A DNA stretch of 64,000 bases from an uncultured virus (IMG/VR IMGVR_UViG_3300037067_016734) (Duplodnaviria > Heunggongvirae > Uroviricota > Caudoviricetes): IMG/VR virus record IMGVR_UViG_3300037067_016734; one strand, given 5' to 3'. Positions 18,060 through 57,327 of the stretch are shown one piece after another. The translations under genes and the position numbers were made by a program. Below the pieces are notes generated by a model. It did not search any database and was not told the origin of the DNA. It worked only from the letters and a program-made list of their open reading frames with translations. Each line of letters opens with the position of its first letter. The first letter of the stretch is position 1.

Positions 18060-18662
18060 TTAACACCTTTCCCATCCACAAGCGGCACAATGTTTGCATC
18101 CATTCTCTGAAATCAAGGAATCTGATTTACAAATAGGACAGACTGAAACTGTTACATTTTTGATATACATAGATAGAATCTTCATAATATGAAATGTAAG
18201 ATGACTTACATTATGATCCACATTTTCTAATTCATCTACTATCTTTTCAACCGGAATCCCATGTCTAAGTGCCAAAGAAATAGTTCTACATAGTTTTGCT
18301 GAATTTGTTTGATGTTTTGATTTAAATCGTTGAGCTTCTAAAAAAATAGAGTCTACGTGTTGTGATACCAAACCCTCTATCTTTTCTAATGCATTTTTGA
18401 TGGTTGCAGAACTATCTCTAGCATTAGTATTCACAAACAATTCATACGGTTTTCCGTCTTTTTCTGTAACCGTAAAATACCACTTCTTTCCATCCGCTCT
18501 TCGTACATATGTATTACCAGAAAGTACTAACGGTCTTTTTTCTACTACTCGCGGCATCTTTAGAAGCCTTTCTGATACTTCTAAGATCTTAATTTCTTCC
18601 TCGTCTCCAACTAAAACGACGCTATCCGATATTACATCATCCGATGTTATAGGGTGAACCAT
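18060..18662 (-). CDS. nrdJb: Class II RNR C-terminal subunit (NrdJb/TSCPD-like, Zn ribbon)
   Basis: PYELFVN, RTISLALRHGIP, CPIC..GCKHCAACGWERC. Confidence 0.85.
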   Translation of the reverse strand: MVHPITSDDVISDSVVLVGDEEEIKILEVSERLLKMPRVVEKRPLVLSGNTYVRRADGKKWYFTVTEKDGKPYELFVNTNARDSSATIKNALEKIEGLVSQHVDSIFLEAQRFKSKHQTNSAKLCRTISLALRHGIPVEKIVDELENVDHNVSHLTFHIMKILSMYIKNVTVSVCPICKSDSLISENGCKHCAACGWERC

Positions 18663-21636
18663 TTCTTTCTATGTACTCCTGACTAAAGTTGAACTGAAAT
18701 TCTTTGTCTAGATCTTTTGGAGTTTTTCTAAACAGGAATATTCCTATTCTATTTGATTCCTGTTCGACATAGACAGTACACCCTTTTAGATTATGTCTCC
18801 ATGCTTCAACATAAAGTTCCTCAATATCAGAAATAGAGGTTGTCTCTCCGGAAAGATTATAGGTAACAGAAATAGAGGCATCAATCCATTCTTGAATTGC
18901 CCCCATTAATTCAATTTTCTTTCTCCAATCAATATTGTGGGCTGTTTTGACTGTTGAGGGATCTACGATGGAATCTACAAGCTCTATCTTTTCGATATCA
19001 GAAGATAGAGTCTCAGTATCGACTCCTGTTTTTTCTAAAACAATATCTCTAATAGCAGGATGAACAACCAACTGCCACATCCATTCATAAGGGTAGTTCT
19101 CGGGGACAACTCTTGTTCTTCTATAATACCACGTGTCTACAATCGGTTCTACGCCACTAGAGGACTGTAGAATCATTGATCCACTTCCAACCGGAGGAAG
19201 AGTGGTGCAACAGACGTTTCTCATTTGAAAATGAAAATCAGGCTTGTCTTTTAAATAACCACTATTATAAACATCTTTGCAAAAAGCCGGATATACTCCT
19301 TTTCTTTGAGATAAAAAGTGACTTTTCCAATATGCTCCCTCCGCCATTTTTTGTGTAATTTTTTCGGCAATTTCTCTTGCTTCGTCGCTATCATAATCCA
19401 CGTTCATTTTTAAAAAGAAATCAGCTAATCCTGTATAACCAACACCTACTCTTCTGAGTTGTTCTAGATCATGCTTTTGAACTGGTGTTGGACAACGATC
19501 ATCTCTTAATTGACATGTTACAATGTTATCGAGAAACCAAAGAACCTCCTTGGCTCTCTCTGAGACCTCACCGTAAGCTTTATCTAAATTATTTGAAAGA
19601 TTTGATAAATTGATATTAGCTAAAACACAAGAAGAACCATTAGATAGAACTTCTTCGCTACAATTGTGAACCCTACATACACCACCACAAATATAAGAAT
19701 TTGTTTCTTCTTCTGTTATACAATATACATCTTCTTTTCCGGCATACTCTACAGATACAATACGAAGTTTCTTATATCTATCTTGATAAATATTGTTTTC
19801 AGTCCATTTCTCCATTCTCTCTTGTTTAAATTTCACTAATGGTGTTATTATCTTCTTTGCATTACTATCGGAAGTTCTTACCTTCCAAACAGTTTGTCTT
19901 ATGCTTTTTTGACCATTGTTAATGTTACACCAATTTGGATTATTATGCTTACATAGTGTACCATATATTCCAAATTCGTGAAACATACGTAGTACATTTT
20001 CTAGCATTTTTCTATTGTAATTATATATTTCCAAAGACTTTAATTTGCTTTTACTTTCTTGATCTCTGACGGTTCCATCGCTCGAAACTAATCCCTGAAG
20101 AAATCCAATTTTAAATGATTTAGACCATTGATTAGGATCTATGTTCTTATTTTTAGAAACACCCCAGGATAATAATTTTTCACATGCCTCTTTCGAAGTA
20201 ATTCTTATTACAGTACAGGTATTTGGTTTTTGATGATGACTCTTGACTGAAATATTTGGATGCAAATGTTTTCTAATTAAATCAGATAATGTATCCAGAT
20301 AATCACTTTCATTATTTCCTATTGCAAAAGAGATAGTGCCATAATGATAAAACTTTTTTGTTTTTAATTCTTTTTTATAAACATAACTTCCATCTCCAAT
20401 AAACCAACCAGCGATAATGCCTCTTTCATATTCATTTTGATCTTCTATATTGCAATTGTGTACAGGTTTACAATACCAATCCTCTAATATATCTGTATTA
20501 TCGATATCCAAAAGTTCTTTTTGTTTATTATTTTTTAGGAAAAATATATGATTACCTGTAAATTTTTGGGTTAATCCATTGGAGAATGTAACTTCATATA
20601 CATCTGCCATTTTTTTTGTCAAAAACGGCCCCTTAACAATAGAGGGCTTATTTTTACCGTTAATTACGGTAAAAATATTATCTTCTGATACATTATTAAA
20701 TAAATATTCTATAGTTTGGTATCCATCCGGAGTTAAAATATGTGAATCTAATGTCTCGCAAGCATTAACCCCTATAACTGGATATCCAACCTGATCACTA
20801 TTAGACTGTTCTTGAGAATGACTCCAATAGAGAAGCCCTGGTTCACTATAATAATAAGCGTTTTTAGCGATTTTTTTCATCAAAGTTCTTGCTTTGATTG
20901 TTTTGGTAACAATAGGATTTTCAGGAGGCCATCTTAGTTCCCAATCTTCATCGTTTTCATATACCTGCATGAATTCATTAGAAACTTTAATAGAAATATT
21001 TGCATATTGAATTCGATTGAGGTCACTTTTGACTGTAATAAACTCTTCAATATCTGGGTGTCGATCATTAATACTGATCAAACCTGCCCCTCGACGCCCT
21101 TCTTGAGCAATTGTCCCCGTTGTCCAGCTAAAGAGGTCCATCCATGAAACCGCGCCGGTACTGGTTACAGCGGCATTGTGGGTTTTTGCTCCTCTCGGTC
21201 TCAAAGGATCAATGGATATTCCAACTCCCTCTCCTCTACTTTGAACTTTAGCCATCAAGAAAGCTGTTTCATATATTGCTTCTATAGAGTCAGGATCAAT
21301 CTCTTTTCCGTTTCTATCTATACCTAAAATAAAACTAGTACAGTTAATTAAAGAGATCTTTCCTTCCCTACCTGCACCATAGAAAATTCTCCCACCGGGA
21401 AGGAATTCTCTATTATACATCATCCAGAACCAATCTTCTGTTTTCTTGACTCTATCTTCTTCTTCAAGTTCGGCACTAGCAGCATAAGAAGCAACTCTAT
21501 AGAAGGCTTCTGCGGGAGTCTCTTTTGTCCCATCAGGCTTAACCATAGCATATTTTGAATTAAATATATATGCTATGTAAAGATCACCCTTAAAGTAATC
21601 AATAGTTGAAGTTGTTGGAATATCCATTGTTACCAT
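18637..21636 (-). CDS. nrdJa: Class II (B12-dependent) ribonucleotide reductase catalytic subunit with intein
   Basis: FLPGGRI, NC, QEGRRGA, spliced NACSE, RRVGVG, SSGVEP, ISVTYN. Confidence 0.92.
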   Translation of the reverse strand: MVTMDIPTTSTIDYFKGDLYIAYIFNSKYAMVKPDGTKETPAEAFYRVASYAASAELEEEDRVKKTEDWFWMMYNREFLPGGRIFYGAGREGKISLINCTSFILGIDRNGKEIDPDSIEAIYETAFLMAKVQSRGEGVGISIDPLRPRGAKTHNAAVTSTGAVSWMDLFSWTTGTIAQEGRRGAGLISINDRHPDIEEFITVKSDLNRIQYANISIKVSNEFMQVYENDEDWELRWPPENPIVTKTIKARTLMKKIAKNAYYYSEPGLLYWSHSQEQSNSDQVGYPVIGVNACETLDSHILTPDGYQTIEYLFNNVSEDNIFTVINGKNKPSIVKGPFLTKKMADVYEVTFSNGLTQKFTGNHIFFLKNNKQKELLDIDNTDILEDWYCKPVHNCNIEDQNEYERGIIAGWFIGDGSYVYKKELKTKKFYHYGTISFAIGNNESDYLDTLSDLIRKHLHPNISVKSHHQKPNTCTVIRITSKEACEKLLSWGVSKNKNIDPNQWSKSFKIGFLQGLVSSDGTVRDQESKSKLKSLEIYNYNRKMLENVLRMFHEFGIYGTLCKHNNPNWCNINNGQKSIRQTVWKVRTSDSNAKKIITPLVKFKQERMEKWTENNIYQDRYKKLRIVSVEYAGKEDVYCITEEETNSYICGGVCRVHNCSEEVLSNGSSCVLANINLSNLSNNLDKAYGEVSERAKEVLWFLDNIVTCQLRDDRCPTPVQKHDLEQLRRVGVGYTGLADFFLKMNVDYDSDEAREIAEKITQKMAEGAYWKSHFLSQRKGVYPAFCKDVYNSGYLKDKPDFHFQMRNVCCTTLPPVGSGSMILQSSSGVEPIVDTWYYRRTRVVPENYPYEWMWQLVVHPAIRDIVLEKTGVDTETLSSDIEKIELVDSIVDPSTVKTAHNIDWRKKIELMGAIQEWIDASISVTYNLSGETTSISDIEELYVEAWRHNLKGCTVYVEQESNRIGIFLFRKTPKDLDKEFQFNFSQEYIERNGSPYNIG
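19663..20760 (-). mobile_element. Intein with LAGLIDADG homing endonuclease (366 aa)
   Basis: Starts CETLDSHILT, ends VHN followed by Cys; blocks AGWFIGDGS and LQGLVSSDGT. Confidence 0.93.
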
Positions 21637-43010: not shown

Positions 43011-43391
43011 ATGCAAATTAGCGGAGAAATTACTCTTAGTGTAAATGATTTAGAGAGAATCTACGAACATTTATATGGTCATAGGTATTATGGAAGAAAT
43101 AGTAATATTAAAATGGTTAGAGCAATTCTTGATGAATTATCTAAACTTGATTTTGCAAGTACAAAAGGAGAGAAGGGGGAATTCTTATATCAGGCACCTT
43201 CAGGATATAACGTTTTAGTAAAAATTGATGATGAAATTGAATTATTATTTACAGAGAAAACCAATTTATATTTATCTGTAACTGACGGAAAACCTTCGTT
43301 ACGTACAGCCGGTAGTGGTGTTAAGTTTATTTATCATTCTCTTCGTATAGTAGAAGTAAAACGCCCCCAACTTTATGATGTCAACCTATGA
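43011..43391 (+). CDS. Hypothetical protein ending in DVNL
   Basis: AGGAG RBS before MQISG. Confidence 0.6.
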   Translation: MQISGEITLSVNDLERIYEHLYGHRYYGRNSNIKMVRAILDELSKLDFASTKGEKGEFLYQAPSGYNVLVKIDDEIELLFTEKTNLYLSVTDGKPSLRTAGSGVKFIYHSLRIVEVKRPQLYDVNL

Positions 43392-43683
43392 AGCACTCTT
43401 AAGAGATAATTTTCAATGTAATTTTTGTGGAAAAGAAAGCGGTATTGTTCATCACGTTCAATATCGAAGTCACTTTGGAACCACCCTAGCGGCAGAACAA
43501 CAAGCTCTATCTAATTTAATAACGGTTTGTGAACATTGTCATTTACTACTCCATCAGAGTGAATTAATGATTATATACTTAAAAGATAATCCAGAACAAC
43601 CCTTTGTTGTTACAGAGAAGAAATTTAACAAAATCAAAGATAGAGTGAGTTTTTTTGTTAAGAGTGGGGAAAGATTGCAATGA
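43375..43683 (+). CDS. HNH endonuclease
   Basis: RDNFQCNFCG, VHH, NLITVCEHCH. Confidence 0.88.
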   Translation: MMSTYEALLRDNFQCNFCGKESGIVHHVQYRSHFGTTLAAEQQALSNLITVCEHCHLLLHQSELMIIYLKDNPEQPFVVTEKKFNKIKDRVSFFVKSGERLQ

Positions 43684-43694
43684 TAAACCTTAAT

Positions 43695-44825
43695 TTTCTA
43701 AAAAGGGTACAATGTTTTTGTGAAAACAATTCGTTCCACAACTTGTTCTCTAAAATTTGCTTCTCAGGAAAAGCGGGATTTGGTGCGGATTGTGATTGCG
43801 GAATATAGCCGATTGGTGAATTTGTTTATAGATCGATTTTGGAAAGACATTCCTGAAAAACGAATCACAAAAATAGAAATCAATTCTTGGTTGTCCGCTG
43901 GACTGAAACGTGAAGCAGCCAACGAAGCAATCTACATGATTCAAGGAACAAAAAAGTCTGCCAAAACATTAAACAAAGAATGTTCAAAACCAAAACACTC
44001 CGGAAGATCGATGATTATACATGACATGAAAGCATTTGCACTGCTACAGTTCCCAGAAAACACAAATCATTTTGATTATTGGTTGCATCTAACAAGTATT
44101 GGAGATGGATTGATTTTTGATCTTCCAATCAAATCTCACAAACATTTCAAAAACCTACAAAAACGTGGACGCATGAATCAAGCTTGCCTTCTTTCTCCTG
44201 ATAAAGTTCAATTTTCTTTCGAGATTGAAACCGGAGAAAAGAGAAAAGAAGGAAAGGCCATTGGGATCGATCTAGGAATCAACCATTTCCTTGCAACTTC
44301 AGAGGGAAACCTGTTAGGAGACATCAAACCAATCATTGAAAAAATGCTCCACAAAAGACCGGGTTCAAAAGCACGAAAAGGACAAGCAATCCATCTTCGC
44401 AATGAAATGAACCGGACAATCAAATCGCTTCCGAGTGAAGCCAAAACAATGTATGTTGAACGTCTGAAGGGAATCTCTTCAGGCACAAGACAGAGACGAG
44501 TTCCCAAACAAGCTCGTTGTTTGATCGGCAGTTGGAATCAAGGCTATGCTTTGTTGAGGATTCAACGTTTCTGCGAAGACAACCGTGTTGCCTTTAGAAG
44601 CGTTAGTCCTTATCAAACAAGCATCACCTGTTCCGCGTGTGGAAAAGCCGACAAAAAGAACCGTGTCGGAGACGTTTTTCGATGTTCGTGTAGCCACAAC
44701 GAACACGCCGACATCAATGCGGCAAAGAACATCCTTCAGCGCGGGGAAGCGGCAGCAGCGCGGTTCGCCGCAATGGTAGATGCCGTTCCTGTGAAATCAG
44801 GAGAAGGCTCAAAATGAGCCTCTAC
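43695..44825 (+). mobile_element. Non-autonomous IS200/IS605-family (TnpB-only) element, copy 1
   Basis: Similarity to copy 2 runs from TTAAT to TCTAC; removal restores an in-frame ORF; no transposase. Confidence 0.88.
43720..44817 (+). CDS. tnpB: TnpB RNA-guided nuclease
   Basis: RuvC GIDLG / VERL / ADINAA; Zn finger CSACG..CSC. Confidence 0.94.
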   Translation: MKTIRSTTCSLKFASQEKRDLVRIVIAEYSRLVNLFIDRFWKDIPEKRITKIEINSWLSAGLKREAANEAIYMIQGTKKSAKTLNKECSKPKHSGRSMIIHDMKAFALLQFPENTNHFDYWLHLTSIGDGLIFDLPIKSHKHFKNLQKRGRMNQACLLSPDKVQFSFEIETGEKRKEGKAIGIDLGINHFLATSEGNLLGDIKPIIEKMLHKRPGSKARKGQAIHLRNEMNRTIKSLPSEAKTMYVERLKGISSGTRQRRVPKQARCLIGSWNQGYALLRIQRFCEDNRVAFRSVSPYQTSITCSACGKADKKNRVGDVFRCSCSHNEHADINAAKNILQRGEAAAARFAAMVDAVPVKSGEGSK

Positions 44826-44845
44826 TGGAAAGATGTAGTTGCGAA
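44748..44845 (+). ncRNA. Predicted omegaRNA (reRNA) 3' scaffold plus guide, copy 1 (5' end undetermined)
   Basis: Stems conserved with compensatory changes against copy 2; GTAGA/TCTAC pseudoknot; guide from 44826. Confidence 0.7.
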
Positions 44846-44883
44846 TAATCGTATATTAAAAACCATATTATCGAGGCTTACGT

Positions 44884-45303
44884 ATGAATAGAGAAAGTAG
44901 ATCCTTAAAATTATATCCAAAACGCGTGTTTATGCGGTATTGTACGGATCGAGGATGGAAATTCCATCTTTCGTCTCTTCATGAAACCCATGTTAACTCT
45001 ACTAAGTTAAATTCATTTGAATGTTATTGTCCTTCCTTCATTATAGATAGAGACTTCAATGATTCCAATATTCCCTTAATTTGGGGAGAGATCAAGAGTT
45101 GCAATAAAGAGGGAGACATTAAGGTATCAAAAGAAGAGTTTGATATCCATAAAGCATTCAATGAAGGAAGAGAAGTGTGGTATGTTCTTTTCGATCATCG
45201 AAATCGTCATTTCAAAATGATTGCTTTAACAAAGCTTGCTGATTTTTTCACCGCCGCAGACGAAAGATATTTCTATTTTAACTTTAATGATGTTCCGGAG
45301 TAA
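44884..45303 (+). CDS. PD-(D/E)XK-like nuclease
   Basis: YCPSFII..WGEIKS. Confidence 0.5.
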   Translation: MNRESRSLKLYPKRVFMRYCTDRGWKFHLSSLHETHVNSTKLNSFECYCPSFIIDRDFNDSNIPLIWGEIKSCNKEGDIKVSKEEFDIHKAFNEGREVWYVLFDHRNRHFKMIALTKLADFFTAADERYFYFNFNDVPE

Positions 45304-46157
45304 TATTTATGAATGAAATCATCGTCAAATCATTATTAAAGGGTACAGCTCTCCATATTTTTGAAAAAAATCAAAAAGATGCCCTTCAACAACTCAAAGA
45401 GGAAACAGAATGGAAGGTTTTCTATAAGGCGGGAATGAAACCGTCTGATTACACTTTTATAAACTATCAAATAGAAGTTTGTCCCGTAGAGGAAGGGACT
45501 AAAATTATAAGTTTAAAATATAAACTAGATTATCTTCCTGATATGTTAATGAAAACTGAAAATATAGAAATTAAAAAGTAGGTGTAAAATGTTAATAGAT
45601 GAAAATTATGCTTATGCAATAGCAAGAGCCAGAAGGATTCTATCTAATCCTCAATCTTCTTTAGAAGATGTTTCTAATGCATTAAATATTACTGTGTATG
45701 TTACTCAGTATTTAGATCCTTATATTCAACAAGACGAAACCCTTCAGAAGATATGGGAGGAAGCGGTAAATAAGTGTTTTAAGGAATTATTCGATGAAAC
45801 AAAACATTGAACTTAAAATTAATGATGAAACTATTGCATTTAGCTCCTTAAAATTTTATGCCAATGCTAATGACGAAGACAAAAAAATAGAGTTAACAAT
45901 AAACAACGAACCTTATGAAATTAAACCTAAAGATAAGTTCGTATTAAATGCAGAAACAGTTTTAATTGAAGGCTCATTTCTTTTACCTTTTATGAATACA
46001 TATATTTTATGTGGCGGAATTAAGAATGAGATTCGTTGTGGAGGTATAGAAGTTCAAATTGATAGTGTGGGAGTGAACTGGTATAATGTAAATGTAGCTT
46101 TTTACACATTAATTCCAGAAAGTCATAATCCGTTAATAGTTCCAGAGGATTAACCTT

Positions 46158-46811
46158 ATGTCCGAAAATGTGGTTTGTATCCCCCGAGATACAATCTCGG
46201 ATGGATTATTTATGGCTGGTTCACCAGGATTTGATGAACTAATACAAAATATTGCATCTAGAAGATTTTATGCAATCAGAGACAAAGAAGACAAGTCTCC
46301 TTTCGCTTTAGAAAATAATACTAACTTAAGACAATTAAGTGTTTATATTCTTGTTCAACAAGATGACTCTATCTACGTTTACCAAAGAACCAAAGGTACA
46401 GGGGAAAAAAGACTTGCCGGTATGTTTGCGTTACCGGGAGGTCATATGAATGCTCTATCTGATGATTTTTTTATAGATATTGCTCAAGATGCGACACGTG
46501 AACTTTATGAAGAATTAAACATGATACCAATTAAGCAAGTTTTCTATGAAGACGGAGTATCGTGCCCCTTCAAGATAGTGGGAGTTTTACAGAACTCTTG
46601 CGTTTTTCAGGAATCTATGGTAGAATTAGTACATACTGGGATATTGGTTAAATTCGATATCTCGAAGCGGTTCAAAGTTGAGATTAAAGAAAAAAACAAG
46701 ATGTCCTCGTTGTCTCTTGTTTCAGCAGATAATATTAATGATTATTTTAAGGATTCCGAACGATGGCTAAAAATGTTGCTTCCGTGGCTTCCCCAACTTC
46801 TAAGGATGTAG
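46158..46811 (+). CDS. NUDIX hydrolase
   Basis: YQRT..GEKRL, PGGH, RELYEEL, VHTG. Confidence 0.85.
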   Translation: MSENVVCIPRDTISDGLFMAGSPGFDELIQNIASRRFYAIRDKEDKSPFALENNTNLRQLSVYILVQQDDSIYVYQRTKGTGEKRLAGMFALPGGHMNALSDDFFIDIAQDATRELYEELNMIPIKQVFYEDGVSCPFKIVGVLQNSCVFQESMVELVHTGILVKFDISKRFKVEIKEKNKMSSLSLVSADNINDYFKDSERWLKMLLPWLPQLLRM

Positions 46812-47371
46812 AAGATAACGGTAGACTAAGCGTTACGAAGATTATCGTTTCTAGAAAAAAAACGAAATCGTTTAGTAGAATCGTAGGGATAATACTTTCA
46901 GATGGTAACATGATTAGTATCGGCTGGCAGAATGATGGGTCTATGTATTCTAATGTATCTTCCGGTGAAGATGCTAGTCGTAAATTTTCGATTGATTGCG
47001 AATCATATGAAATTAAATATAACGACGGTACTTTGAGTGTTGTAGTTCCTGATTTCATTAATGAACTTATGGGTGGAGTAGAGATAGAGGAAGAGGAAGG
47101 AGAAAAGAAACCAAAAGGAAAAGGTAACCGTAAACTTGATGTCTCCGAACTTCCTCCGGAGATTGTAGAAGAAGATTATATACCATCTGAAAAACAAAAA
47201 AGAGGTAGAAAACCTAAAACTACCACCACCCCCCCCACTCTATCTAAATCTTCCACTGAAAGTTGTCCTGATCATCCCAACTATCATGGTAAAAGAAAGC
47301 CCGTTAATGGTTGTAAGAAGTGTTGGGAAATGTATAAGAAAATTAGTCCTAAACTAGCGGAGAAATGTTAA
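46763..47371 (+). CDS. Hypothetical protein with basic tail and C-terminal Cys/His motif
   Basis: KRGRKPK; CPDHPNYHGKRKP..CKKCW. Confidence 0.55.
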   Translation: MAKNVASVASPTSKDVEDNGRLSVTKIIVSRKKTKSFSRIVGIILSDGNMISIGWQNDGSMYSNVSSGEDASRKFSIDCESYEIKYNDGTLSVVVPDFINELMGGVEIEEEEGEKKPKGKGNRKLDVSELPPEIVEEDYIPSEKQKRGRKPKTTTTPPTLSKSSTESCPDHPNYHGKRKPVNGCKKCWEMYKKISPKLAEKC

Positions 47372-48783
47372 CCCCATCAATAATTATAATAGATCCCAAA
47401 AGGGATAGCATTGTACATATCATAAACCAATACCTTACTATCGATTCAAATATGAGAATTTTATTAAACGAGGAGGGACGTAGATCATTAAGAGGCTCAA
47501 GTATTATGCTTCCATCTCTTTCTAATTTTGGTCCTCCTCCGAACACGCCGTTAGGAACGATATACGGAGTTCCAATACAAGAAGGAGAAATCAATATAAT
47601 TCATTGGTTTGGGGATTTGACAGAACTAAATAAACAAAACTTAAAGGATGCCTTAGATCCATGATCTACCTTTTAACAAGTGATTATTATGACATTGAAA
47701 CCGGTGGAGATCATACGGTTTGGGGTGTTTATACAGATTTAAATTTATTAATAAATCAAATAATTGATATCAAAAAAGATTGGGATAAAACTCGTGAATT
47801 TGTTGAACGTCAAGCCAAAATTCAAGATATGCCTACTAGAGATGAAAGTGGAAAGATTGAGATTGATCCCGAAAGGTGGTCAGCAAAAAGAGAAGCATTG
47901 ATAACATTATTAGACGAGGAACATGCATACTTTAAAGGTAAAGAAATTGATATGTATTTCCTCGGAGCAGATTACGAATGGAGCGTTGAAGAATGGGATG
48001 ATAATTCTACAAAAATTAGAAAAAGATATGATGCTTGGGAATTGTTAAAATAAAATAGAGGAATAAAATGGATATAACTAAAATCAAAGAGATTCTATCT
48101 AAATTAAATGGTACTATTACCATCACCAACGGTCAAGCAGATGTGAAATTATCAATTCCACTAGCTGATCTAATTGCTATGCTAATGCCTAAAACATAAG
48201 ATAGAGTGGAGGATTAATTTTGCCTACGATAAGTATTAAACCTTTTACTATTAGAAACATTCAAAAGGCCAAGAATATATTGAATATTGGTAGTAATTAT
48301 AATTATTATATTATTGAAATTAATAAAAATGGATTAAAATATATACGAAAACATATTGGTTTGATGGCATTTTCTCCCGCATGTAATGGTCAGATTATTG
48401 ATTTTATAGATAATGTTCAATCGGGAGAATATTTAGGGATACTAGAAGGTATTCAATGTATATATAAACCAGAACGCAAGGAAAGCTGTATCGGTACCAT
48501 TGCTAGTCCATCGACTGACTTAAACATTCAAAATTTAGATGAATTTTTTAAGAAATGAGAAAAAATAAATGGGGTCAACCCGCTCCTCCATATTTTTTAG
48601 ATTTATATTGGAGGGTAGAGTGGATTATAAAATGGTTATTTTTATATTGGAGACATCCTAAAAAAGGATGGTGGGTTGGAACTCATACTTGTTCTAATAA
48701 GTTAGCGGATTGGATGTATAAAAATGATCCAAAATGGAAAATATTTATTGACAAATGTATAGATGAAGCTATAAGAGTGGAAA

Positions 48784-49494
48784 ATGAAAACAAAATTTAA
48801 ACTAGGAAAACTTCCTCCGAAAATTGATAAACGTACTCTTAAAATGAGTACATATTTCAAGTATGGAATTCCTGCTCCTCCCGAACATTGTTATTATTAT
48901 AACAAAGCGGGAAATTGGGGAGTACTCGGAAATGATCGTTACGGAGATTGTACGTTTGCTGCCGTAGGTCATGCCGAACAATGTTGGACAGCGAATGTTG
49001 GTAGGCAGTGTGATGTTAAAGAAGCAGATATTGTCAAAGCATATTTGGCTTACACTAAAGGAGCAGATGGTGGGGCTGCTATGCTTGAGGTTCTTAATCT
49101 ATGGAGGCAGGGAGGCATTATAGGTAAAAAGATAGAGGCTTACGTTAGTGTAGACAAAGAAGATATTAGGTCTGGTATCAATCTTTTCGGTGGAATCTAT
49201 TTAGGTTTAGCTCTTCCTAATTATGTGATGAGTGATCCATTAGGTGTACCGTGGACGAGAACGGCTTTGGCATCGAAGAATTCCCGAAACGGACATTGTG
49301 TACAATTAGTTGGTTATGATAGAGATGGATTGTGGTGCATCAGTTGGGGTTGTTTGAAGTTTATGTCTAACAACTTCTTAAAGAAATATACAGATGAGGC
49401 ATATGCAATTCTTAGCCCGGATTGGTTTAAAGACAATCAGGCTCCCAATGGATTTGATTATCAATCCCTAAAAGAGGACTTGAATAAATTATGA
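48784..49494 (+). CDS. Papain-like cysteine peptidase domain protein
   Basis: GDCTFAA, GHCV..GYD, SWG. Confidence 0.75.
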   Translation: MKTKFKLGKLPPKIDKRTLKMSTYFKYGIPAPPEHCYYYNKAGNWGVLGNDRYGDCTFAAVGHAEQCWTANVGRQCDVKEADIVKAYLAYTKGADGGAAMLEVLNLWRQGGIIGKKIEAYVSVDKEDIRSGINLFGGIYLGLALPNYVMSDPLGVPWTRTALASKNSRNGHCVQLVGYDRDGLWCISWGCLKFMSNNFLKKYTDEAYAILSPDWFKDNQAPNGFDYQSLKEDLNKL

Positions 49495-50298
49495 TGTGGT
49501 TTAGTTTAGGTGTGGCTATTGGTTGTTTTGTTTTGGGTCTTCTTCCTCCTTATAATTTTGGAAGCGTCATACTTCTTCTTTTGTGGGGAATAAATTTTGG
49601 ATTTTTTACGGTTGGTTTATGGGAAAAATATATTAGAAAACAAAAGGTATAACTTATGCATAAAATAACATTCACTGGTAATTTTTTTAGAGATCAAGCA
49701 GAAACCCACGGAGAACACGGATATATTTCTCCAAGAGAATGCGATATAACAATTCAGGTTTATGATGAAAATATTAGAGTAACTATTCTTCCTAAAGAAG
49801 GTTATCATGATAGCGATCCAGATCCAGAATATCCTCCCATTATCTTAGAGTTTGACAAAGAAGATGCTGCACAAATTGGTAGGATATTATTGAAATTAGG
49901 TAGAGAAATTATGTATGAGATAAACTAAGTGTTAACTTTCAGTATTGATGAAAAAACATTAAAACAACTTGCTCTATCTCTCCCGGAAGTAAAAGATCTT
50001 TTTATAGAACCAGGAAGATGTATTACAATAAAGATAGAGGTTGATGGTAAGAATGCTAAAATTAAAATTGCTCCATTTGTAACTACCGGAAAATTAGAAC
50101 TTAGAATTTTTAAGGTTTTTGCTGAAGGTATTAATATTAATGTAGCGAGTCTGGTACCTCTCTTTCTAGGTAAGATGAAAAAGACTCTATCTTTAGAGCT
50201 TAGAAGAATAATTGATATAGAAGGGAATAGTATATTTGTATTTGTTCCTGTCAAATTCGTAGGAATCGATAAAACAGGATTAATTCTGAGGTTTTAAA

Positions 50299-50628
50299 AT
50301 GCCAACTTTATCCGATATCAACTATATAACAATAGACCCAGATCCAGCCGGACTCATAACGGAAACGGGGGATAGCACTGACGATACATGGAGGTATAAC
50401 CCAAATTATTATAAAACAAATATTGATCCTAACATATATCCTTATCCTCAAACCTCTTATACATTTCCAGAACCGGAAAATCTACAAACTCAAGTTGAAA
50501 GAATCTTAAAAAAATTAGAAGAAGAATCATTATCGGATATCGAAATTGGAATTTTGAAGACATTGTTAGAGAAAATTTCTAAATATCTAACCGATAAGGG
50601 TCCGAAACTTTTAGATGTAGAACTATGA
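50299..50628 (+). CDS. Hypothetical protein ending in DVEL
   Basis: GAGG RBS; 109 aa. Confidence 0.6.
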   Translation: MPTLSDINYITIDPDPAGLITETGDSTDDTWRYNPNYYKTNIDPNIYPYPQTSYTFPEPENLQTQVERILKKLEEESLSDIEIGILKTLLEKISKYLTDKGPKLLDVEL

Positions 50629-51566
50629 ACAACATTCAATCTCCTTGGTTTGACTTTCCGATTCCTTCAGAAACAATTGCTGAAGCAGAGCTATTACAAT
50701 CATATAGCGATGATACGATTAAATATGCGCGTTTGATGTTAATTAAGCGATTAAGAGAATCGGCTAATTATTGGGAATTGTTACCAATACCAGATAGAGA
50801 ACGTTTTACTGAAAATGAGTTAAAAACGATTGCTGAAAGCGATACAAATCTTAATAATCCGAATACATATGCTAAAATTGGTGAATCGGTTTATTCGAGT
50901 GAATTATTTAAGGGCATTCAAACCTTTAACGTCCTTAGCTTAGGTAAATATGAACTACCGGCTATACGTTTTAGGGTTAGTCGATTTGTTGGAACTGATA
51001 CGATTTATGATTTACTCCTAAACTCAGATAACGAATTACAATTGAATTATTGGCTTTCGAAAACCAAGATTCTTGACACCACAACCGCTAAATTCACGGA
51101 TATCTCTATAAAACCTTTCGAACAACAAAACACTCTATCTAGAAGTTTATTAGAGGATATAGATTACGTAGATACAGGATCTTTAGATGTAGAACTAGTA
51201 GAGAAATTAAGACAGAGAACAATGCTGAATTCTGAAAGAGAATTCTATAACTATATTCTTAATGATAAACTAGGTTTCTTTGGAGGAATTGGTGGAATAT
51301 CTTCCCCCAAGCTTACCGATGATTTAGCTCTTCGGGCATTTGCTACCGATAACAGAAGACAATTTTATCATACAAATGTGCCAGAATACATCTCTTCAGT
51401 AGGAAACAAAGATTATATCAACTTCAGATTTGAAATTATCAATATCAACGGAGAAGATTTTTTTGAAGTAAAATGGTGCTTTCCGCAAGCTGAAAGGATT
51501 TCTTTTGGCAACGGAATGGATGGTTGGACAAACCGAGAATTACTACAAATGCTAACAAAGAGATAA
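50625..51566 (+). CDS. Hypothetical protein
   Basis: 313-aa ORF, ATGA-coupled. Confidence 0.65.
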   Translation: MNNIQSPWFDFPIPSETIAEAELLQSYSDDTIKYARLMLIKRLRESANYWELLPIPDRERFTENELKTIAESDTNLNNPNTYAKIGESVYSSELFKGIQTFNVLSLGKYELPAIRFRVSRFVGTDTIYDLLLNSDNELQLNYWLSKTKILDTTTAKFTDISIKPFEQQNTLSRSLLEDIDYVDTGSLDVELVEKLRQRTMLNSEREFYNYILNDKLGFFGGIGGISSPKLTDDLALRAFATDNRRQFYHTNVPEYISSVGNKDYINFRFEIININGEDFFEVKWCFPQAERISFGNGMDGWTNRELLQMLTKR

Positions 51567-51738
51567 AATATGGACATCATACCAGATAGCCAATTAGGTA
51601 GAAACATGGAAATTGGTCTACTTATAAAAAAGATAGAGATTGCGTGTGGACAATATGGTGCAGGATGTGTAGAGTTGAGTGTGGTTACAGATTTAGCCAA
51701 ACAATTGATTGAATTAACAACATAAAAAAGGATTTAAA

Positions 51739-52374
51739 ATGAAGAATTATATCAACTATGTCGATTATGAAAGCGAATCTAGTAATGCTGGTTGCGATTG
51801 TGGCGGTGTCTGTAGATGTAGTATAATCACTAAAGTTAAAATTAATGGATTATATCCTAAAATTTTTAAACATTTAGGTTTAAATGAACCTACCTCAAAA
51901 ATTGGTAAATATTGTTTTGATAAAATTTTTTCAGGAAGAGAGTTTTCTTTTGCTAATCTGTTTGATTGGGAAGCTTCTAAGTCTTATTATGGAGAAGAAG
52001 TTACCTCTATTACGTGTCACGATGAAGAAAAATTATATGGTATCTTAAAGAACTTTTCTGAATGTAGTGAATTGGAAATGACAAAAGCTGCCCTTCGAGC
52101 AGAGTATGGTTTCATTCTCCCCGAAATAGATCCTTTAAAGACAGTTGAGATTTCAAAATTAGCTAAAACAGATATATCTCCAAAACCTAAAAAGAATACT
52201 CGTAACGATTGTTTTCTTTACTCTGCGCCGGAGAAATATCCCGGTTTTATTTGTGGTATTGTTATTGATAATAATGACGGAACATATCGCTTAATTGACG
52301 GTCATAATAGATTTGAGAGATGGCTTCCTTTAAACGTTAAAAAAGATAAAGTTGACTTTATTATATTAAGGTAA
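51739..52374 (+). CDS. Protein with C-terminal ParB/Srx-like motif
   Basis: YRLIDGHNR; N-terminal Cys cluster CDCGGVCRC. Confidence 0.6.
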   Translation: MKNYINYVDYESESSNAGCDCGGVCRCSIITKVKINGLYPKIFKHLGLNEPTSKIGKYCFDKIFSGREFSFANLFDWEASKSYYGEEVTSITCHDEEKLYGILKNFSECSELEMTKAALRAEYGFILPEIDPLKTVEISKLAKTDISPKPKKNTRNDCFLYSAPEKYPGFICGIVIDNNDGTYRLIDGHNRFERWLPLNVKKDKVDFIILR

Positions 52375-52386
52375 GAACAGAAACGG

Positions 52387-52415
52387 TTGATTTTTTTAAA
52401 CGGAGATGCTAAAAT
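52387..52415 (+). promoter_or_regulatory. Sigma70-type promoter
   Basis: TTGATT-N17-TAAAAT with TG extension. Confidence 0.6.
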
Positions 52416-52938
52416 GGAAAAAGTGTGGAGACTATTAGATGATTAAACTTGCAATAGGGATAACTGTAATAGTTTTGTTTGTATTGTTGATAATATGGAC
52501 GCAATTAATACAGAGACTTCAAGATAGAGCTATAAAATATGTTTTTGATTATGCGCTTACTGGCGATCCGCATGATCTAGCTTTAGCTGGTTATTATAAT
52601 GATTTATCTTGGGCCATTATGCACTTTTGGAACCGTCAATGCTGGAAAGATTTTCAGCAAAGCAAAGCCGAATTAGGAGAATTAAATGCTAAAAAGTCTA
52701 AAAGTAGCTAATTATCCAGAACAATTTGAAATCGGTAGAGAGGTTTTTGTAAGGTTTTGTGATTTACCGGGATGGCATTTTTTTAATGGAATTATTATGA
52801 GAAAAGTTTATGAAGTTCATGTAACAAAAGATGGAGAAACAAAACGTCCTCCTAAAATTATTATTTCTAACGGAAAAGAAGAAATAGAATCAAGTTCTTA
52901 TAGTGATTTTTATATTCCCGAATGGGAAGAATAGTGGT

Positions 52939-52967
52939 TTGCCTTTTTCAGGGGACCGTGATATTAT
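52939..52967 (+). promoter_or_regulatory. Sigma70-type promoter; predicted leaderless ruvB mRNA
   Basis: TTGCCT-N17-TATTAT; ATG 7 nt downstream. Confidence 0.65.
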
Positions 52968-52973
52968 AGGGGT

Positions 52974-53870
52974 ATGGAGCTTTATCCAGCCATAATTGGA
53001 CAAGCCAAGGCGAAAGCGTTGTTGTCTGAGAGCATTGCGTTCGTCAAGAAGCGTAACGCTAGATTTCCGCATACCATTTTCGAGAGTGCTACCGGTGGTA
53101 CCGGTAAGACCTCAATGGTGCGCTTGACGGCTCAATATCTTGATGCAGACGTTGTAACGATTAATGCGATAGACGCCAAACCTCTTGATATAGCTAAGGC
53201 TATTGCGAAACACAATCCTTTTCGTAAGCTGGTTGTGTTTATTGAAGAATGGAATAGTCCAAATAAAGCATTGGATTATTTTTTGAGACCTCTCATTGAA
53301 GAAGATAGAGTGTTGGTAGAGGGAGAGGAGTATGAGTGCGATTATTTAAATCAAGTTTCTATTATCATTAGCTCCAACGACAAGACCGCTCTCCCGCAAC
53401 CACTTCTTTCTCGTCTTGAGAGAGTCAAGATGGTTGATTATTCTCAGGAGGAACTGTATAAGATAGCTTGTCTATATCGTGACTCTCAGCCTGACTTAAA
53501 GATTAGCGATGATGCTTTGCATGAGATTGCTAGTCGTAGTAGGGGGGTTCCTAGAACCATAGTTAAGATTATTGGAGCGTGTTATAGGCACTTTGTAGTC
53601 ACCGAAAAAGCTCTATCTAAATTAGATGTCATAGATGTCATGGTTAACTTCGATATTTATAAACATGGATTAAATGCGATAGATCTTAAGATTCTAAAAA
53701 TGTTAAACGACCAGGATAGTCTCAGCTTAACCGCATTGTGCGGTATGACTAATGAAACACCTGAATCAATTCGTTATCAGGAAGCTTTATTAATGCAGCT
53801 TGGTTTGATGGAGATCACCAATAAGAGAAGAATTACTATGAAAGGTAGATCTTTTCTGAGGGACTTATAA
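52974..53870 (+). CDS. ruvB: RuvB-like Holliday junction branch migration ATPase
   Basis: IIGQ, GGTGKTS, PLLSR, IASRSRGVPR, GLNAID, E..L..GLM..R.IT.KG. Confidence 0.88.
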   Translation: MELYPAIIGQAKAKALLSESIAFVKKRNARFPHTIFESATGGTGKTSMVRLTAQYLDADVVTINAIDAKPLDIAKAIAKHNPFRKLVVFIEEWNSPNKALDYFLRPLIEEDRVLVEGEEYECDYLNQVSIIISSNDKTALPQPLLSRLERVKMVDYSQEELYKIACLYRDSQPDLKISDDALHEIASRSRGVPRTIVKIIGACYRHFVVTEKALSKLDVIDVMVNFDIYKHGLNAIDLKILKMLNDQDSLSLTALCGMTNETPESIRYQEALLMQLGLMEITNKRRITMKGRSFLRDL

Positions 53871-54088
53871 TGATATTAACAGATTTGAATATTCTGAATT
53901 TATTTGAAAGTTTAGGAGTAGAAGATATCCATATTGTACGGAGTGCTACAGATGATGTTTATGTTCAGTCTAAAAGAATTCTTCGTCCACTTGATCCTCA
54001 TGATCACTTATACATAAATAGGTCGTGGGGAACATATCAAAGTTTTGCACGTGCAATGATGGCGTACATAAAAGATGACACACTGTAA
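53870..54088 (+). CDS. MTxLNxxNL-family small protein
   Basis: MILTDLNILNLFESLG. Confidence 0.7.
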   Translation: MILTDLNILNLFESLGVEDIHIVRSATDDVYVQSKRILRPLDPHDHLYINRSWGTYQSFARAMMAYIKDDTL

Positions 54089-54353
54089 ATATTGTAAGAC
54101 ACAACTAGGATCAAGAGAGAAAAAGATTTGTTTTTCCTGTTCTAATAAATACGGTAAAATGAAGATGAAATTATTTAAGGAAGCGAAGGCAATATTTGGT
54201 GTTCTTGATACACCGCAGAAACTAAAACAATTAAAAGATTATATTGATCATAGAATGGTACAGGCTCAAAAAATTACACATTCAAGAGAAAACAATATCG
54301 TATGGATTGATTTTATTTTATTTGAACCAAAAATATATGATGTGGAATTATGA
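54075..54353 (+). CDS. Zn-finger protein ending in DVEL
   Basis: CKYC..CFSC; KIYDVEL. Confidence 0.6.
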   Translation: MTHCKYCKTQLGSREKKICFSCSNKYGKMKMKLFKEAKAIFGVLDTPQKLKQLKDYIDHRMVQAQKITHSRENNIVWIDFILFEPKIYDVEL

Positions 54354-54550
54354 CTGAATTGAATCTTCTTAATTTGTGTTGGTATTGTGGGCTAGAGGAC
54401 GCTCAAATAATTCATCGGGGCGGTATATGGATCAAGAGTGATATATTTACGAAGGCTAGACACCATATGGTATGTATTGATAAATATCAACAAAGAGATG
54501 TGTATGATAATGTGCAATTTATATATAATTATTTAGAACATTATAGTTAA
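54350..54550 (+). CDS. MTxLNxxNL-family small protein
   Basis: MTELNLLNLCWYCG. Confidence 0.7.
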   Translation: MTELNLLNLCWYCGLEDAQIIHRGGIWIKSDIFTKARHHMVCIDKYQQRDVYDNVQFIYNYLEHYS

Positions 54551-54650
54551 ATATTTCTATGGTTTTTTAATCTTCAAGGATTCTTCAGCTTCCTCTTCGA
54601 TTTCTTTTATCTTCTCTTTGAGTAGATTATCCATATATTCTTGAAGCTTT

Positions 54651-55259
54651 TCAGGGGATGATGATTTGTCTTTGTCCACTTGCCCTCATGCGCTCCATTA
54701 CAAATCTATCTACAAATTGTTTTCCTGTGATATCTAAAATATCACGATTAGATCCTCTTACTGCTAACCAAGGAATATGAATTAGACTTGCAGGATAAGG
54801 TAGACTTAAGAGATCGCGTCTAACTTCTGGAATACAGAAAACGGCAGGGTTCTCTAAAGATCCCAATGAGTGATCTTTCTTTAATAGATTAGCGAAAAAT
54901 CCAAAAATTAACATATTACTACCGGCTCTAAGATCAAATTTTTCGTCTCCTCTATCTCCTAAAGCTCTTTCCATGATTTTTCCATAATCTTCATTAAAAC
55001 TATTACCTTCTGTAGTCATCTTTCTAGCTAATTCATCCATCATTTTTGTAGATAAATCAAGATGCATTCCTTGTAATAGATTCCCTTCAATATAGCTTTT
55101 AGCGATAGTAGGATTACCAACTCGATCTAACATAGCATAACCAAAAGTTAAATCTAGGATTCCCATATCCCAAGCGTCATCATCCAAAATTAAATCAATT
55201 GCACCAACAGCACTGGCACCTTGATATGAACCATCTAATGTACTAACTCTTCCCTTCAT
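54651..55259 (-). CDS. Hypothetical protein
   Basis: 202-aa ORF. Confidence 0.6.
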   Translation of the reverse strand: MKGRVSTLDGSYQGASAVGAIDLILDDDAWDMGILDLTFGYAMLDRVGNPTIAKSYIEGNLLQGMHLDLSTKMMDELARKMTTEGNSFNEDYGKIMERALGDRGDEKFDLRAGSNMLIFGFFANLLKKDHSLGSLENPAVFCIPEVRRDLLSLPYPASLIHIPWLAVRGSNRDILDITGKQFVDRFVMERMRASGQRQIIIP

Positions 55260-55554
55260 CAGCTTCTATCTCCTTGACGATTTCATCTAGAGGAGCAAAA
55301 CCTTGGAATTGTTTCTTAAGGAAACTAATCCAATTCTTATTGCTATAAGAAAAGCCTTGTCCAAACCCTATAAAATGTCCTGCATCATAAGCTATATAAA
55401 AACTAATATAAAAAATTGATGCTACTATCATACCACCTATAATTGCAAGGGGTGTTTTAGTAACAAAAGTTAATCCATACCACGTTAATATAGCAATGAT
55501 AAGAGGAAAAAGGATAATATAGATTTCTCTAGCTTTTTGTTGGTAGAATCTCAT
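55243..55554 (-). CDS. Two-TM membrane protein whose start (MRFY) comes from the TnpB element
   Basis: First 4 codons lie inside the element right end; original N-terminus MKQKIVTHFN at 56709-56680. Confidence 0.7.
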   Translation of the reverse strand: MRFYQQKAREIYIILFPLIIAILTWYGLTFVTKTPLAIIGGMIVASIFYISFYIAYDAGHFIGFGQGFSYSNKNWISFLKKQFQGFAPLDEIVKEIEADEGKS

Positions 55555-55626
55555 TTTGAGTTTTCTCCTATATGTTTTTTAGGAGCGGCATCTACCATTG
55601 CGATTGAAAATCGCGCTGCTGCCGCT
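55523..55626 (-). ncRNA. Predicted omegaRNA 3' scaffold plus guide, copy 2
   Basis: Covarying stems against copy 1; guide CAACAAAAAGCTAGAGAAAT from 55542. Confidence 0.7.
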
Positions 55627-56679
55627 TCCCCGCGCTGAAGGATGTTCTTTGCCGCATTGATATCGGCGTGTTCTCTGTGGCTACACGAACATCGAAAAAC
55701 ATCTCCGACACGGTTCTTTTTGTCGGCTTTTCCACACGCGGAACAGGTGATGCTTGTTTGATAAGGACTAACGCTTCTAAAAGCAACACGGTTGTCTTCA
55801 CAGAAGCGTTGAATCCTCGACAAAGCATAGCCTTGATTCCAACTGCCGATCAAACAACGAGTCCGTTTTTGAACTCGTCTCTGTTTTGTGCCTGAAGAGA
55901 TTCCCTTCAGACGTTCAACATACAAAGTTTTGGCTTCACTCGGAAGCGATTTGATTGTCCGGTTCATTTCATTGCGGAGATGGATTGCTTGTCCTCTACG
56001 TCCCTTTGAACCCGGTCTTTTGCGAAGCATTTTTTCAATGATTGGTTTGATGTCTCCTAACAATTCTCCTTCCGAAGTTGCAAGGAAATGATTGATTCCA
56101 AGATCAATCCCGATTGCTCTTCCCTCTTCTCTTTTTGTTCCCGTTTCAATCTCGAAAGAGAATTGAACTTTGTCGGGAGAAAGAAGGCAGGCTTGATTCA
56201 TGCGTCCGCGTTTTTGTAGGTTCTTGAAATGTTTATGAGATTTGATGGGGAGATCAAAGATTAAACCATCACCGATGCTTTTAAGATGCAACCAATAATC
56301 AAAATAAGTCGTTTCTTCTGGAAATTGCAATTCCGCGAATTGATTCATATCCCTTAAACGAATCGATTTTCCAGAATGTTTTGGTTTGGAATATTCGCAT
56401 TTTAAGCTTTTAGCGGCATTTTTTGTTGCTTTGATCATGTAGATTGCTTCGTTGGCGGCTTCCCGTTTCAGTCCAGCGGACAACCAAGAATCGATTTTAA
56501 TTTTTGTGATTCGTTTTTCAGGAACGTCTTTCCAAAATCGATCTATAAATAAATTCACCAATCGGCTATATTCCGCAATCACAATTCGCACCAAATCCCG
56601 CTTTTCCTGAGAAGCAAATTTTAGAGAACAAGTTGTGGAACGAATTGTTTTCACAAAAACATTGTACCCGTTTTAGAAA
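55543..56679 (-). mobile_element. Non-autonomous IS200/IS605-family (TnpB-only) element, copy 2
   Basis: Follows TTAAT (56684-56680), ends TCTAC; removal restores an in-frame ORF. Confidence 0.88.
55551..56654 (-). CDS. tnpB: TnpB RNA-guided nuclease
   Basis: Same RuvC and Zn-finger motifs as 43720; close paralog. Confidence 0.94.
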   Translation of the reverse strand: MKTIRSTTCSLKFASQEKRDLVRIVIAEYSRLVNLFIDRFWKDVPEKRITKIKIDSWLSAGLKREAANEAIYMIKATKNAAKSLKCEYSKPKHSGKSIRLRDMNQFAELQFPEETTYFDYWLHLKSIGDGLIFDLPIKSHKHFKNLQKRGRMNQACLLSPDKVQFSFEIETGTKREEGRAIGIDLGINHFLATSEGELLGDIKPIIEKMLRKRPGSKGRRGQAIHLRNEMNRTIKSLPSEAKTLYVERLKGISSGTKQRRVQKRTRCLIGSWNQGYALSRIQRFCEDNRVAFRSVSPYQTSITCSACGKADKKNRVGDVFRCSCSHREHADINAAKNILQRGEAAAARFSIAMVDAAPKKHIGENSK

Positions 56680-57327
56680 ATTAAAATGAGTTACTATTTT
56701 TTGTTTCATTGGCTTGTATAATCCCTGTTTCAAGATAAAACTTAACAATATCTTCTTCTGAAATCTTAAAAATGATATTCAAGATAGAGGTTGCGGTTCC
56801 GAGGAGATATTTTAGATCATCTGTGAGTGGTGTTAAAAACACTTGTTCGTCATCCTTGACGGAAAGAATGGCTTCTTTATAGCCGTACTCATTTATCAAG
56901 GTTTGGATTTTTTCAATGAATTCGTTGAGTTTGTTTGTGTTCTCGATATTTGCTTCGTTTTCTGCCATAATATACTCCAAAATTTGATTAAGAGAGACGA
57001 TCCTCTCTACAATGTTTTACCCATTCGATAAAATTTTTGTAAAGCGAAACCAATATACCGGATAATGTGGTATAGTAAATTGTCGTAAATTTAGCTTAAA
57101 AGGTGCTTATATGGACGAAAAAAAGCCTACCATCAATCAACTTATTTATACCGGACGTATTAACGAAGAAGTTCGGTATATGACTTATTATCCTTGTTAT
57201 GTTCGAGATATTTCTTCAGACAAAACAAGATTAATCATAGAATTTCATTCGTATAATCATACATATTCTTGGGAAGTCCCTGCCAGTTCCGTTCTACGTA
57301 CTATAAACTAATTCGGGAGAATATGAA

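Follow-up and report, generated by a model that had tools for sequence, protein, structure and literature searches.

TnpB and its omegaRNA form the OMEGA systems, which are carried by IS200/IS605 and IS607 elements and by tnpB-only copies. Gene disruption is generally regarded as the price at which such elements spread, except where an intron is present. Here, we focus on two tnpB-bearing elements in a stretch of 64,000 nucleotides from an uncultured virus of the Caudoviricetes (IMG/VR IMGVR_UViG_3300037067_016734), referred to at its full length as the window. Both elements lie near the 5' end of a putative phage open reading frame (ORF), and both end with an ATG from which the interrupted gene could be restarted. 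Translational coupling at overlapping stop and start codons occurs in phage and bacterial operons, and the window elements resemble it through a 4-nt ATGA overlap and a Shine-Dalgarno-like AGGAG. Unlike ordinary coupled pairs, however, the partners here are a mobile element and a truncated host gene. Quiet residence of a TnpB element inside a gene is known from IStrons (IS605 or IS607 elements with a group I intron), which have a built-in conflict between splicing and omegaRNA maturation on one transcript (PMC10690162, in the part available). In contrast to IStrons, the window elements have no intron; rescue would be translational, would leave a changed N-terminus and would work only near 5' ends. 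A selfish nuclease gene inside a phage gene is also found in the homing endonuclease "genes in pieces," such as the fragmented nrdA (PMC3045599). In those systems, both gene halves are expressed and reassemble, whereas here only an N-terminal piece of 5-16 residues would be replaced, and the nuclease is RNA-guided. What the two would have in common is a downstream host part translated from a new start.

With modest confidence, we read the two window elements as diverged members of one non-autonomous OMEGA element of the TnpB-only kind, both with an intact RuvC/zinc-finger TnpB, for which restart of the interrupted gene has been selected. Judged from sequence, translational restart near the 5' ends of phage genes is probably a recurrent, selected outcome of insertion. 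The window copies are likely examples of it, copy 2 being more credible than copy 1. A search of the literature found no account of a start codon situated in the end of a TnpB, IS605 or IS607 element, and the terms "in-frame" and "start codon" do not occur in the available text of PMC13565253 and PMC10690162, both of which treat homing and retention.

Copy 1 spans 43695-44825 on the plus strand (1131 nt) and copy 2 spans 56679-55543 on the minus strand (1137 nt), with boundaries taken from the alignment of the two copies and, for copy 2, from the sequence as well. Mean column identity between them is 91% in an alignment that includes short flanks. TTAAT directly precedes the element in both cases, and the similarity ends exactly after TCTAC. 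Both elements begin with TTTCTAAAA and have a left end of 25 nt. Scanning the window with up to three mismatches returned only the two left ends and the two right ends, and none would be expected by chance. As much as 97% of the element is tnpB, which in copy 1 starts with a GTG 25 nt inside the element (43720-44817, plus strand, 365 aa) and in copy 2 also with a GTG (56654-55551, minus strand, 367 aa); its stop lies 8 nt before the element end. The last 12 nt read ATG AGC CTC TAC in copy 1 and ATG AGA TTC TAC in copy 2. In copy 1, AGGAG (44799-44803) is followed after a 10-nt spacer by the ATG (44814-44816), which overlaps the tnpB stop TGA (44815-44817); in copy 2, AGGAG (55569-55565) likewise stands 10 nt before an ATG (55554-55552) lying over the tnpB stop. 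Both ATGs are 12 nt from the element end and in frame with the ORF of the downstream flank. The same junctions occur with 0 differences in contigs from the metagenome of a second study (X2 record 9). Joints of empty sites (43694>44826 and 55542>56680) are not listed in runs X1-X3, whose contigs are few and shallow and uninformative either way. In one contig of run X3 (depth 2), from a diverged relative, 55417 is connected to 56671 through 16 unrelated letters. This joint would drop tnpB together with ~125 nt of host gene 2 while keeping 9 nt identical to the left end; either a scar left by a deletion or an artefact of the alignment could account for it.

When the elements are removed in silico, an uninterrupted ORF results in each case. 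For copy 1, the joined frame runs from ATG 43680 to TAG 44889-91 and has 26 codons (MINLN|WKDVVANNRILKTILSRLTYE). Its stub MINLN occupies 43680-43694 on the plus strand, with the TTAAT at 43690-43694 as the likely TAM (target-adjacent motif) or target, and the rest of this putative ORF (WKDVV...TYE) occupies 44826-44891. For copy 2, the frame runs from ATG 56709 to 55243 and has 109 codons (MKQKIVTHFN|QQKAREIY...), the stub lying at 56709-56680 on the minus strand and its TTAAT at 56684-56680. From the right-end ATG (MRFY), an ORF extends over 55554-55243 on the minus strand. Its host part (55542-55243, 99 codons) encodes a small predicted membrane protein and is surely coding, since it is an open frame of 99 codons in DNA of 33% G+C. 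Public gene predictions call a 103-aa protein from the element's ATG, which is a predicted product rather than evidence of translation. The original prediction had claimed the restored host ORFs as well as the right-end ATG with its overlap of the tnpB stop, the 10-nt spacing from AGGAG and the frame; the coordinates hold for both copies, and direct reading of the sequence bears out the rest. From either host ATG, a reading path also continues into the element for 38 codons (43680-43808 and 56709-56566), overlapping the tnpB start and reaching the same stop in both copies.

The same outcome recurs among relatives of the element, designated here by locus (L). In L017, L001 and L162/L170, by sequence comparison, the element is inserted in sense at about codons 12-16 of a homology-verified gene, and an in-frame start lies in the right end. 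L017, in which alone the upstream stub was checkable, is a full IS607-type element inside a 137-aa gene whose uninterrupted allele (P0115, 99% identical) begins MNFKEVAGKYGV|SLVEF. A 12-codon stub is retained 5' of the left end (L017:1107-1142), and the right-end ATG at 3723 yields MSRFKGTV|SLVEF. The host part in L001 has 887 homologues, and its residue 1 aligns mostly to their residues 10-17; the in-frame start is a GTG 29 nt inside the right end. The gene interrupted in L162/L170 encodes a peptide deformylase, and the cut falls at about codon 14-17. An in-frame ATGATG closely follows the tnpB stop, at 47/44 nt within the right end. Positions 18-149 of the 156 in the Pfam profile align to residues 19-156 of the product that begins there.

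Counts over the wider family are based on 56 unique right-end junctions, corresponding to 168 junction-frames. A sense ORF of at least 60 codons crosses the junction in 22 of the 56. Among these 22, 14 have a start codon within 33 nt and are for the most part compatible with a gene beginning right after the element, although by profile position two of them (L179 and L226) are mid-gene insertions. The remaining eight crossing ORFs have no nearby start. Seven of these eight contain an in-frame start within the element, compared to 74/168 junction-frames (binomial 0.016), a comparison whose classes were defined after the data had been seen and in which some right ends are related (L176 and L208). 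For ATG alone, the figures are 6/8 cut ORFs and 30/168 junction-frames. The original prediction looked to homologous insertions for a bias toward this frame and toward 5' ends. In-frame starts are indeed enriched and sense insertions near 5' ends recur, but other insertions are mid-gene and some have no restart codon.

The region that holds the restart signals is also the part of the element expected to function as RNA. Both right ends are predicted to form two terminal hairpins closed by GUAGA/UCUAC (RNA z of -2.2 and -2.7; DNA z of -2.9 in both copies). The hairpin comes within 4 nt of the element end, and the left end is unstructured (DNA z of -0.5 and -0.2). In copy 1, hairpin 1 (44786-44803, plus strand; TTCCTG / CAGGAG) contains AGGAG and appears in both RNA and DNA folds, and hairpin 2 (44805-44821, plus strand; AGGCTCA AAA TGAGCCT; DNA fold z = -2.86) contains the ATG. 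Between the copies, hairpin 1 changes from UUCCUG/CAGGAG to CUCCUA/UAGGAG, with one compensatory G-C to A-U change; in hairpin 2 (AGGCUCA-AAA-UGAGCCU), the AUG sits at the loop edge. Synonymous divergence is lower in the last 65 tnpB codons (dS 0.17) than overall (0.34), as expected if an RNA overlaps there. The structured right end would give the omegaRNA, and by analogy the first ~16-20 nt of the right flank (44826 onward in copy 1) would serve as its guide. Conservation of AGGAG and ATG in the two copies is thus explained by tnpB codons and hairpin structure. If the RNA is folded or bound by TnpB, both signals would be hidden, and a ribosome finishing tnpB would open them.

A number of observations weigh against selected restart, beginning with the window itself, which supplies only two insertions. 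Within its ORFs there are 156 sense-strand TTAAT sites, of which 95 follow a complete codon, 61 follow two bases and 0 follow one, because T-TAA-T cannot be read inside an ORF. The chance of an in-frame insertion is therefore ~0.61 per site and ~0.37 for both copies, and the value of 1/9 given in the original prediction was too low. The position and direction of the insertions are less expected than the frame match, since only 19/424 TTAAT sites combine sense orientation with a place among the first 15 codons of an ORF, and both insertions are at such sites. Taken by itself, the window is weak evidence for restart. Host ORF 1 has 26 codons and its reality is unverifiable. For host gene 2, no homologue and no Pfam or PHROG family was found and Atlas matches are all <0.9, so that its native start is a putative one. 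The 38-codon path from the host ATG crosses the tnpB start in another frame and passes over the tnpB ribosome-binding site, so translation of tnpB, and any coupling to it, may be weak. AGGAG and ATG are both paired in the predicted right-end hairpins; initiation could be blocked when the RNA folds or TnpB binds, and the transcript to be translated would also be cut during omegaRNA processing. Among the relatives, L199 is cut mid-gene and has no restart codon, L179:4080-4436 lies inside an HNH/homing-endonuclease gene (PHROG profile positions 55-166/187), and L226:4104-4895 lies in the middle of an intein/PhoH gene, with the element 5' of the PhoH-like domain, where by our own reading the sequence resembles a LAGLIDADG/intein motif. 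An antisense ORF of at least 60 codons abuts 11/56 junctions, and the nearest downstream gene is co-oriented in only 34/52. Finally, start codons vary in place and frame across right-end lineages, and many right ends have none.

Selected restart has to be compared with the more ambitious proposal of an evolved device, in which the right end has been shaped to always carry an outward ribosome-binding site and start, making 5' insertion harmless. Such a device would account for the retention of AGGAG, the 10-nt spacing and ATGA in both copies despite a dS of 0.34, for the outward ATGATG after the tnpB stop in L162/L170 and in L005 (which is not in a gene), for the ATG kept at -9 in L176, L208 and L012 and at -33 in the ...TAAcggt family, and for the enrichment of in-frame starts at cut ORFs. 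Yet the place and frame of the start differ between right-end lineages, no start is present in 94/168 junction-frames, and in types such as L004, L010, L014 and L164 the tnpB stop runs directly into GGAACGGT. The ATG base rate of 18% is about the chance level, and the window motif is explained by tnpB codons (G-E...S-K-stop) together with the two hairpins. At the place of the GTG of L001, its relatives L007 and L161 read GTA; these two do not lie within a gene in that frame, and the difference looks like filtering or a change after insertion. We regard a device as unlikely. The use of different start codons in different IS607-type right ends points to selection that acted more than once, either during insertion or later, rather than to a single device, and the sequences fit insertions that were filtered, or adjusted later, better than they fit a conserved property of the omegaRNA scaffold. 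The original prediction had described a splicing-free, translation-level rescue built into that scaffold. The rescue as an outcome gains from its recurrence in L017, L001 and L162/L170, though the frame match in the window is near the default. That it is built into the scaffold is unproven, as relatives end in ...AACGGT and have their starts elsewhere, in other frames, or not at all.

At the other extreme, there may be no functional restart, with the elements sitting in tolerated spots and the ATG arising as a by-product of AAA plus TGA that is then taken up by gene callers. Copy 1 would then lie in a 69-nt intergenic gap and copy 2 in a dispensable orphan gene. The near-default frame match fits this explanation, as do an estimated chance of ~0.15 (our own figure) for a 26-codon open frame in this composition, the orphan status of host gene 2, the apparent lack of ~125 nt of that gene in the diverged X3 relative (one contig, depth 2), and the sequestration of AGGAG and ATG in predicted hairpins. 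It does not fit as well with both insertions falling among the 19 of 424 sites described above, with three relatives that have the same arrangement in conserved genes, or with in-frame starts in 7/8 as against 44%, which argues against pure chance; coincidence thus appears rather improbable. Least probable by far is that the tnpB genes are domesticated, that is, immobile and kept as operon genes, for instance for RNA-guided exclusion of competing phages, so that the overlaps at both ends are ordinary operon junctions. No transposase is found in the 64-kb window, the elements have no promoter of their own, dN/dS is 0.21, and the junctions are identical in two studies. All of this would be expected of resident genes, but the copies occupy two unrelated sites, have sharp ends in common and are both preceded by TTAAT, which speaks against it, as do intact catalytic residues and a homing layout in which the guide would match the flank of the element itself. 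Homing between co-infecting phages needs no transposase either, and to that extent domestication overlaps with our reading of a mobile element whose insertions are tolerated by restart.

If restart occurs as we propose, the elements are probably transcribed by read-through from the phage operon, because they have no recognizable promoter (no promoter-like site was found at the left end of either element), a left end of 25 nt, and a co-directional position in an operon. Ribosomes that finish tnpB, or that bind AGGAG 10 nt 5', would probably initiate at ATGA. In the resulting host protein, MSLY or MRFY would stand in for the first 5 or 10 residues. Tolerance of this kind is the likeliest reason for insertions to persist at such sites where 92% of the genome is coding. 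A matching frame would follow from TTAAT lying mostly in that codon phase together with survival of those phages that keep their genes expressed. Whether phage OMEGA elements in general, TnpB-only and IS607-type alike, repeatedly acquire or keep outward right-end starts and so live unsilenced in the first dozen codons is a broader proposition that we put forward tentatively and think doubtful. If true, insertions would be made phenotypically silent at the level of translation and without an intron, in parallel to IStron splicing and in competition with omegaRNA maturation, and production of guide RNA would be predicted to trade off against translation of the host gene from a single transcript. 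Common rescue of genes by a right-end start would explain the persistence of TnpB elements in gene-dense phage genomes. It would also be a warning for annotation, as many "gene starts" beside tnpB would be derived from the element.

The proteins themselves leave little question as to their family. Both have the Cas12f1-like_TNB domain (Pfam E 1.5e-13 for copy 1; PF07282, E 7.8e-14 for copy 2) with its zinc finger and the RuvC D, E and D residues; D184, E247, D331, C304, C307 and C322 are invariant across 67 family members including both copies. The copies are 88% identical as proteins, and with a dN/dS of 0.21 at a dS of 0.34 their sequences indicate that they are old, have been kept separately, and are under purifying selection at the protein level. 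Divergence along the gene is uneven (dS 0.14 in codons 1-80, 1.58 in codons 80-130 and 0.36 in codons 130-300), which suggests a mosaic or recombinant segment.

Assignment of the element to a described class is less straightforward. Its likeness to OMEGA lies in a TnpB with a zinc finger and the D-E-D residues of RuvC, a right end of predicted structure that overlaps the 3' end of tnpB and shows one compensatory pair, TTAAT at the left end of 2/2 copies in the position of a putative TAM, a guide that would come from the right flank, and relatives with an IS607-type serine recombinase. Unlike typical OMEGA elements, those of the window are extremely compact (25-nt left end, stop 8 nt from the end) and have neither a transposase in the window nor an Rfam omegaRNA match. 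Rfam omegaRNA and RAGATH-18 families had no match in the window or in 11 relatives. No Rfam family at E<=1 lies inside either element, so there is no group I intron of the kind that defines an IStron; together with the 25-nt left end, this agrees with the original prediction, in which an intron had been discounted. IS200/IS605 elements are marked by a Y1 (HUH) TnpA, by subterminal hairpins at both ends and by insertion 3' of a fixed AT-rich 4-5-mer. Of these features, a predicted right-end hairpin and TTAAT at 2/2 sites are present, the left-end hairpin is absent, and no Y1 (HUH) TnpA is encoded within the 64-kb window, where no transposase family was found among 88+9 ORFs. IS607 elements are described as having a serine recombinase TnpA, GG ends, and insertion at or after GG (PMC13565253, in the part available). 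The window elements have TCTAC ends without GG, an AT-rich TTAAT target or TAM, and no TnpA. They thus fit neither the IS607 nor clearly the IS605 description in the available text of that source.

Close relatives are scarce. The only one above 46% identity is P0003 (70%), which is available only as a protein and is encoded on a metagenome contig of 5.4 kb. Fragments of tnpB with ~85% identity occur in runs X1 and X3. None was found in phage records by tblastn (best match 25-30% identical), in viral contigs with either TnpB, P0003 or two flanking proteins as queries, or by a search with the left-end DNA pattern. Relatives at 37-45% TnpB identity are common in phage contigs, and 136 of the 376 stretches that match the search pattern in the viral collection encode a TnpB relative, besides 366 stretches in metagenomes and 416 in genomes; scans of viral contigs with the right-end pattern gave 2 loci and 1 already known. 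The right ends of relatives finish in ...AACGGT in 18/22 loci and in ...ACGGT in 51/59 loci, with the tnpB stop 4-52 nt from the end and no ATG over the stop. Several encode an IS607-type serine recombinase (Resolvase and MerR in L010, Resolvase in L081), and GGGGT is the target in L010, L014 and L017, placing these relatives with IS607. Their left ends could be located through ACCGTT for L014 and L017 only (L181 being possible) and through a neighboring left-end motif for L010. In these left ends (L017:1143-1200, L014:1200-1260 and L010:27-80), a well-formed promoter-like pair, TTGACA ... TATAAT/TAAAAT, is accompanied by the tip of the right end in inverted form (ACCGTTCC / GGAACGGT). Neither feature is present in the 25-nt left end of the window elements. 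A class of "3'-end insertion" considered for L010 and L014 was dropped; the left-flank frame of L014 is open for only 11 codons.

Both window elements are co-directional with the surrounding genes. Copy 1 starts 11 nt after the stop of an HNH endonuclease gene (43375-43683, plus strand; Pfam HNH, E 3.7e-6; PHROG HNH endonuclease families) whose TGA overlaps ATG 43680. On the other side, the ATG of the next phage gene (44884-45303, plus strand, 139 aa, no Pfam or PHROG match) overlaps the end of the mini-ORF. Copy 2 starts 1 nt after the stop of a 99-aa phage gene (56980-56681, minus strand), and that stop, TAA 56683-56681, is the center of the TTAAT preceding the element. A 4-nt overlap of the ATGA type is the commonest gene junction here (17/102 same-strand neighbor pairs). 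The window as a whole represents the replication module of a large phage, with Pol III alpha, DnaB, a primase domain, RecA, an SbcC-like ATPase, ClpP and ribonucleotide reductase (RNR). An intein that includes a LAGLIDADG domain lies within the gene of the RNR large subunit (18637-21633, minus strand; Pfam Intein_splicing, LAGLIDADG_3). This phage therefore has at least four selfish nuclease elements, namely the RNR intein, the HNH gene at 43375-43683 and the two TnpB elements. In L226 and L179, relatives of the TnpB element are themselves inserted inside other selfish genes.

Two of the relatives have neighbors of note. In L001, the ORF immediately 5' of tnpB (L001:1002-1535, plus strand) matches Tad3, an inhibitor of type I Thoeris (PF25185, E 7.8e-41, profile 1-114/119). 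Recombinase-like sequence lies further 5', so that the Tad3 ORF is apparently placed between serine recombinase and tnpB. If this placement is right, an anti-defense gene appears to be carried as cargo of a mobile element. The corresponding slot in L017 is held by an unrelated 145-aa ORF. In L005, a tmRNA gene (L005:3735-4103; Rfam, E 8e-55) begins 94 nt 3' of the relative's right end, so this copy would lie in a cellular genome or a tmRNA-carrying phage, outside protein genes, with the outward ATGATG still kept.

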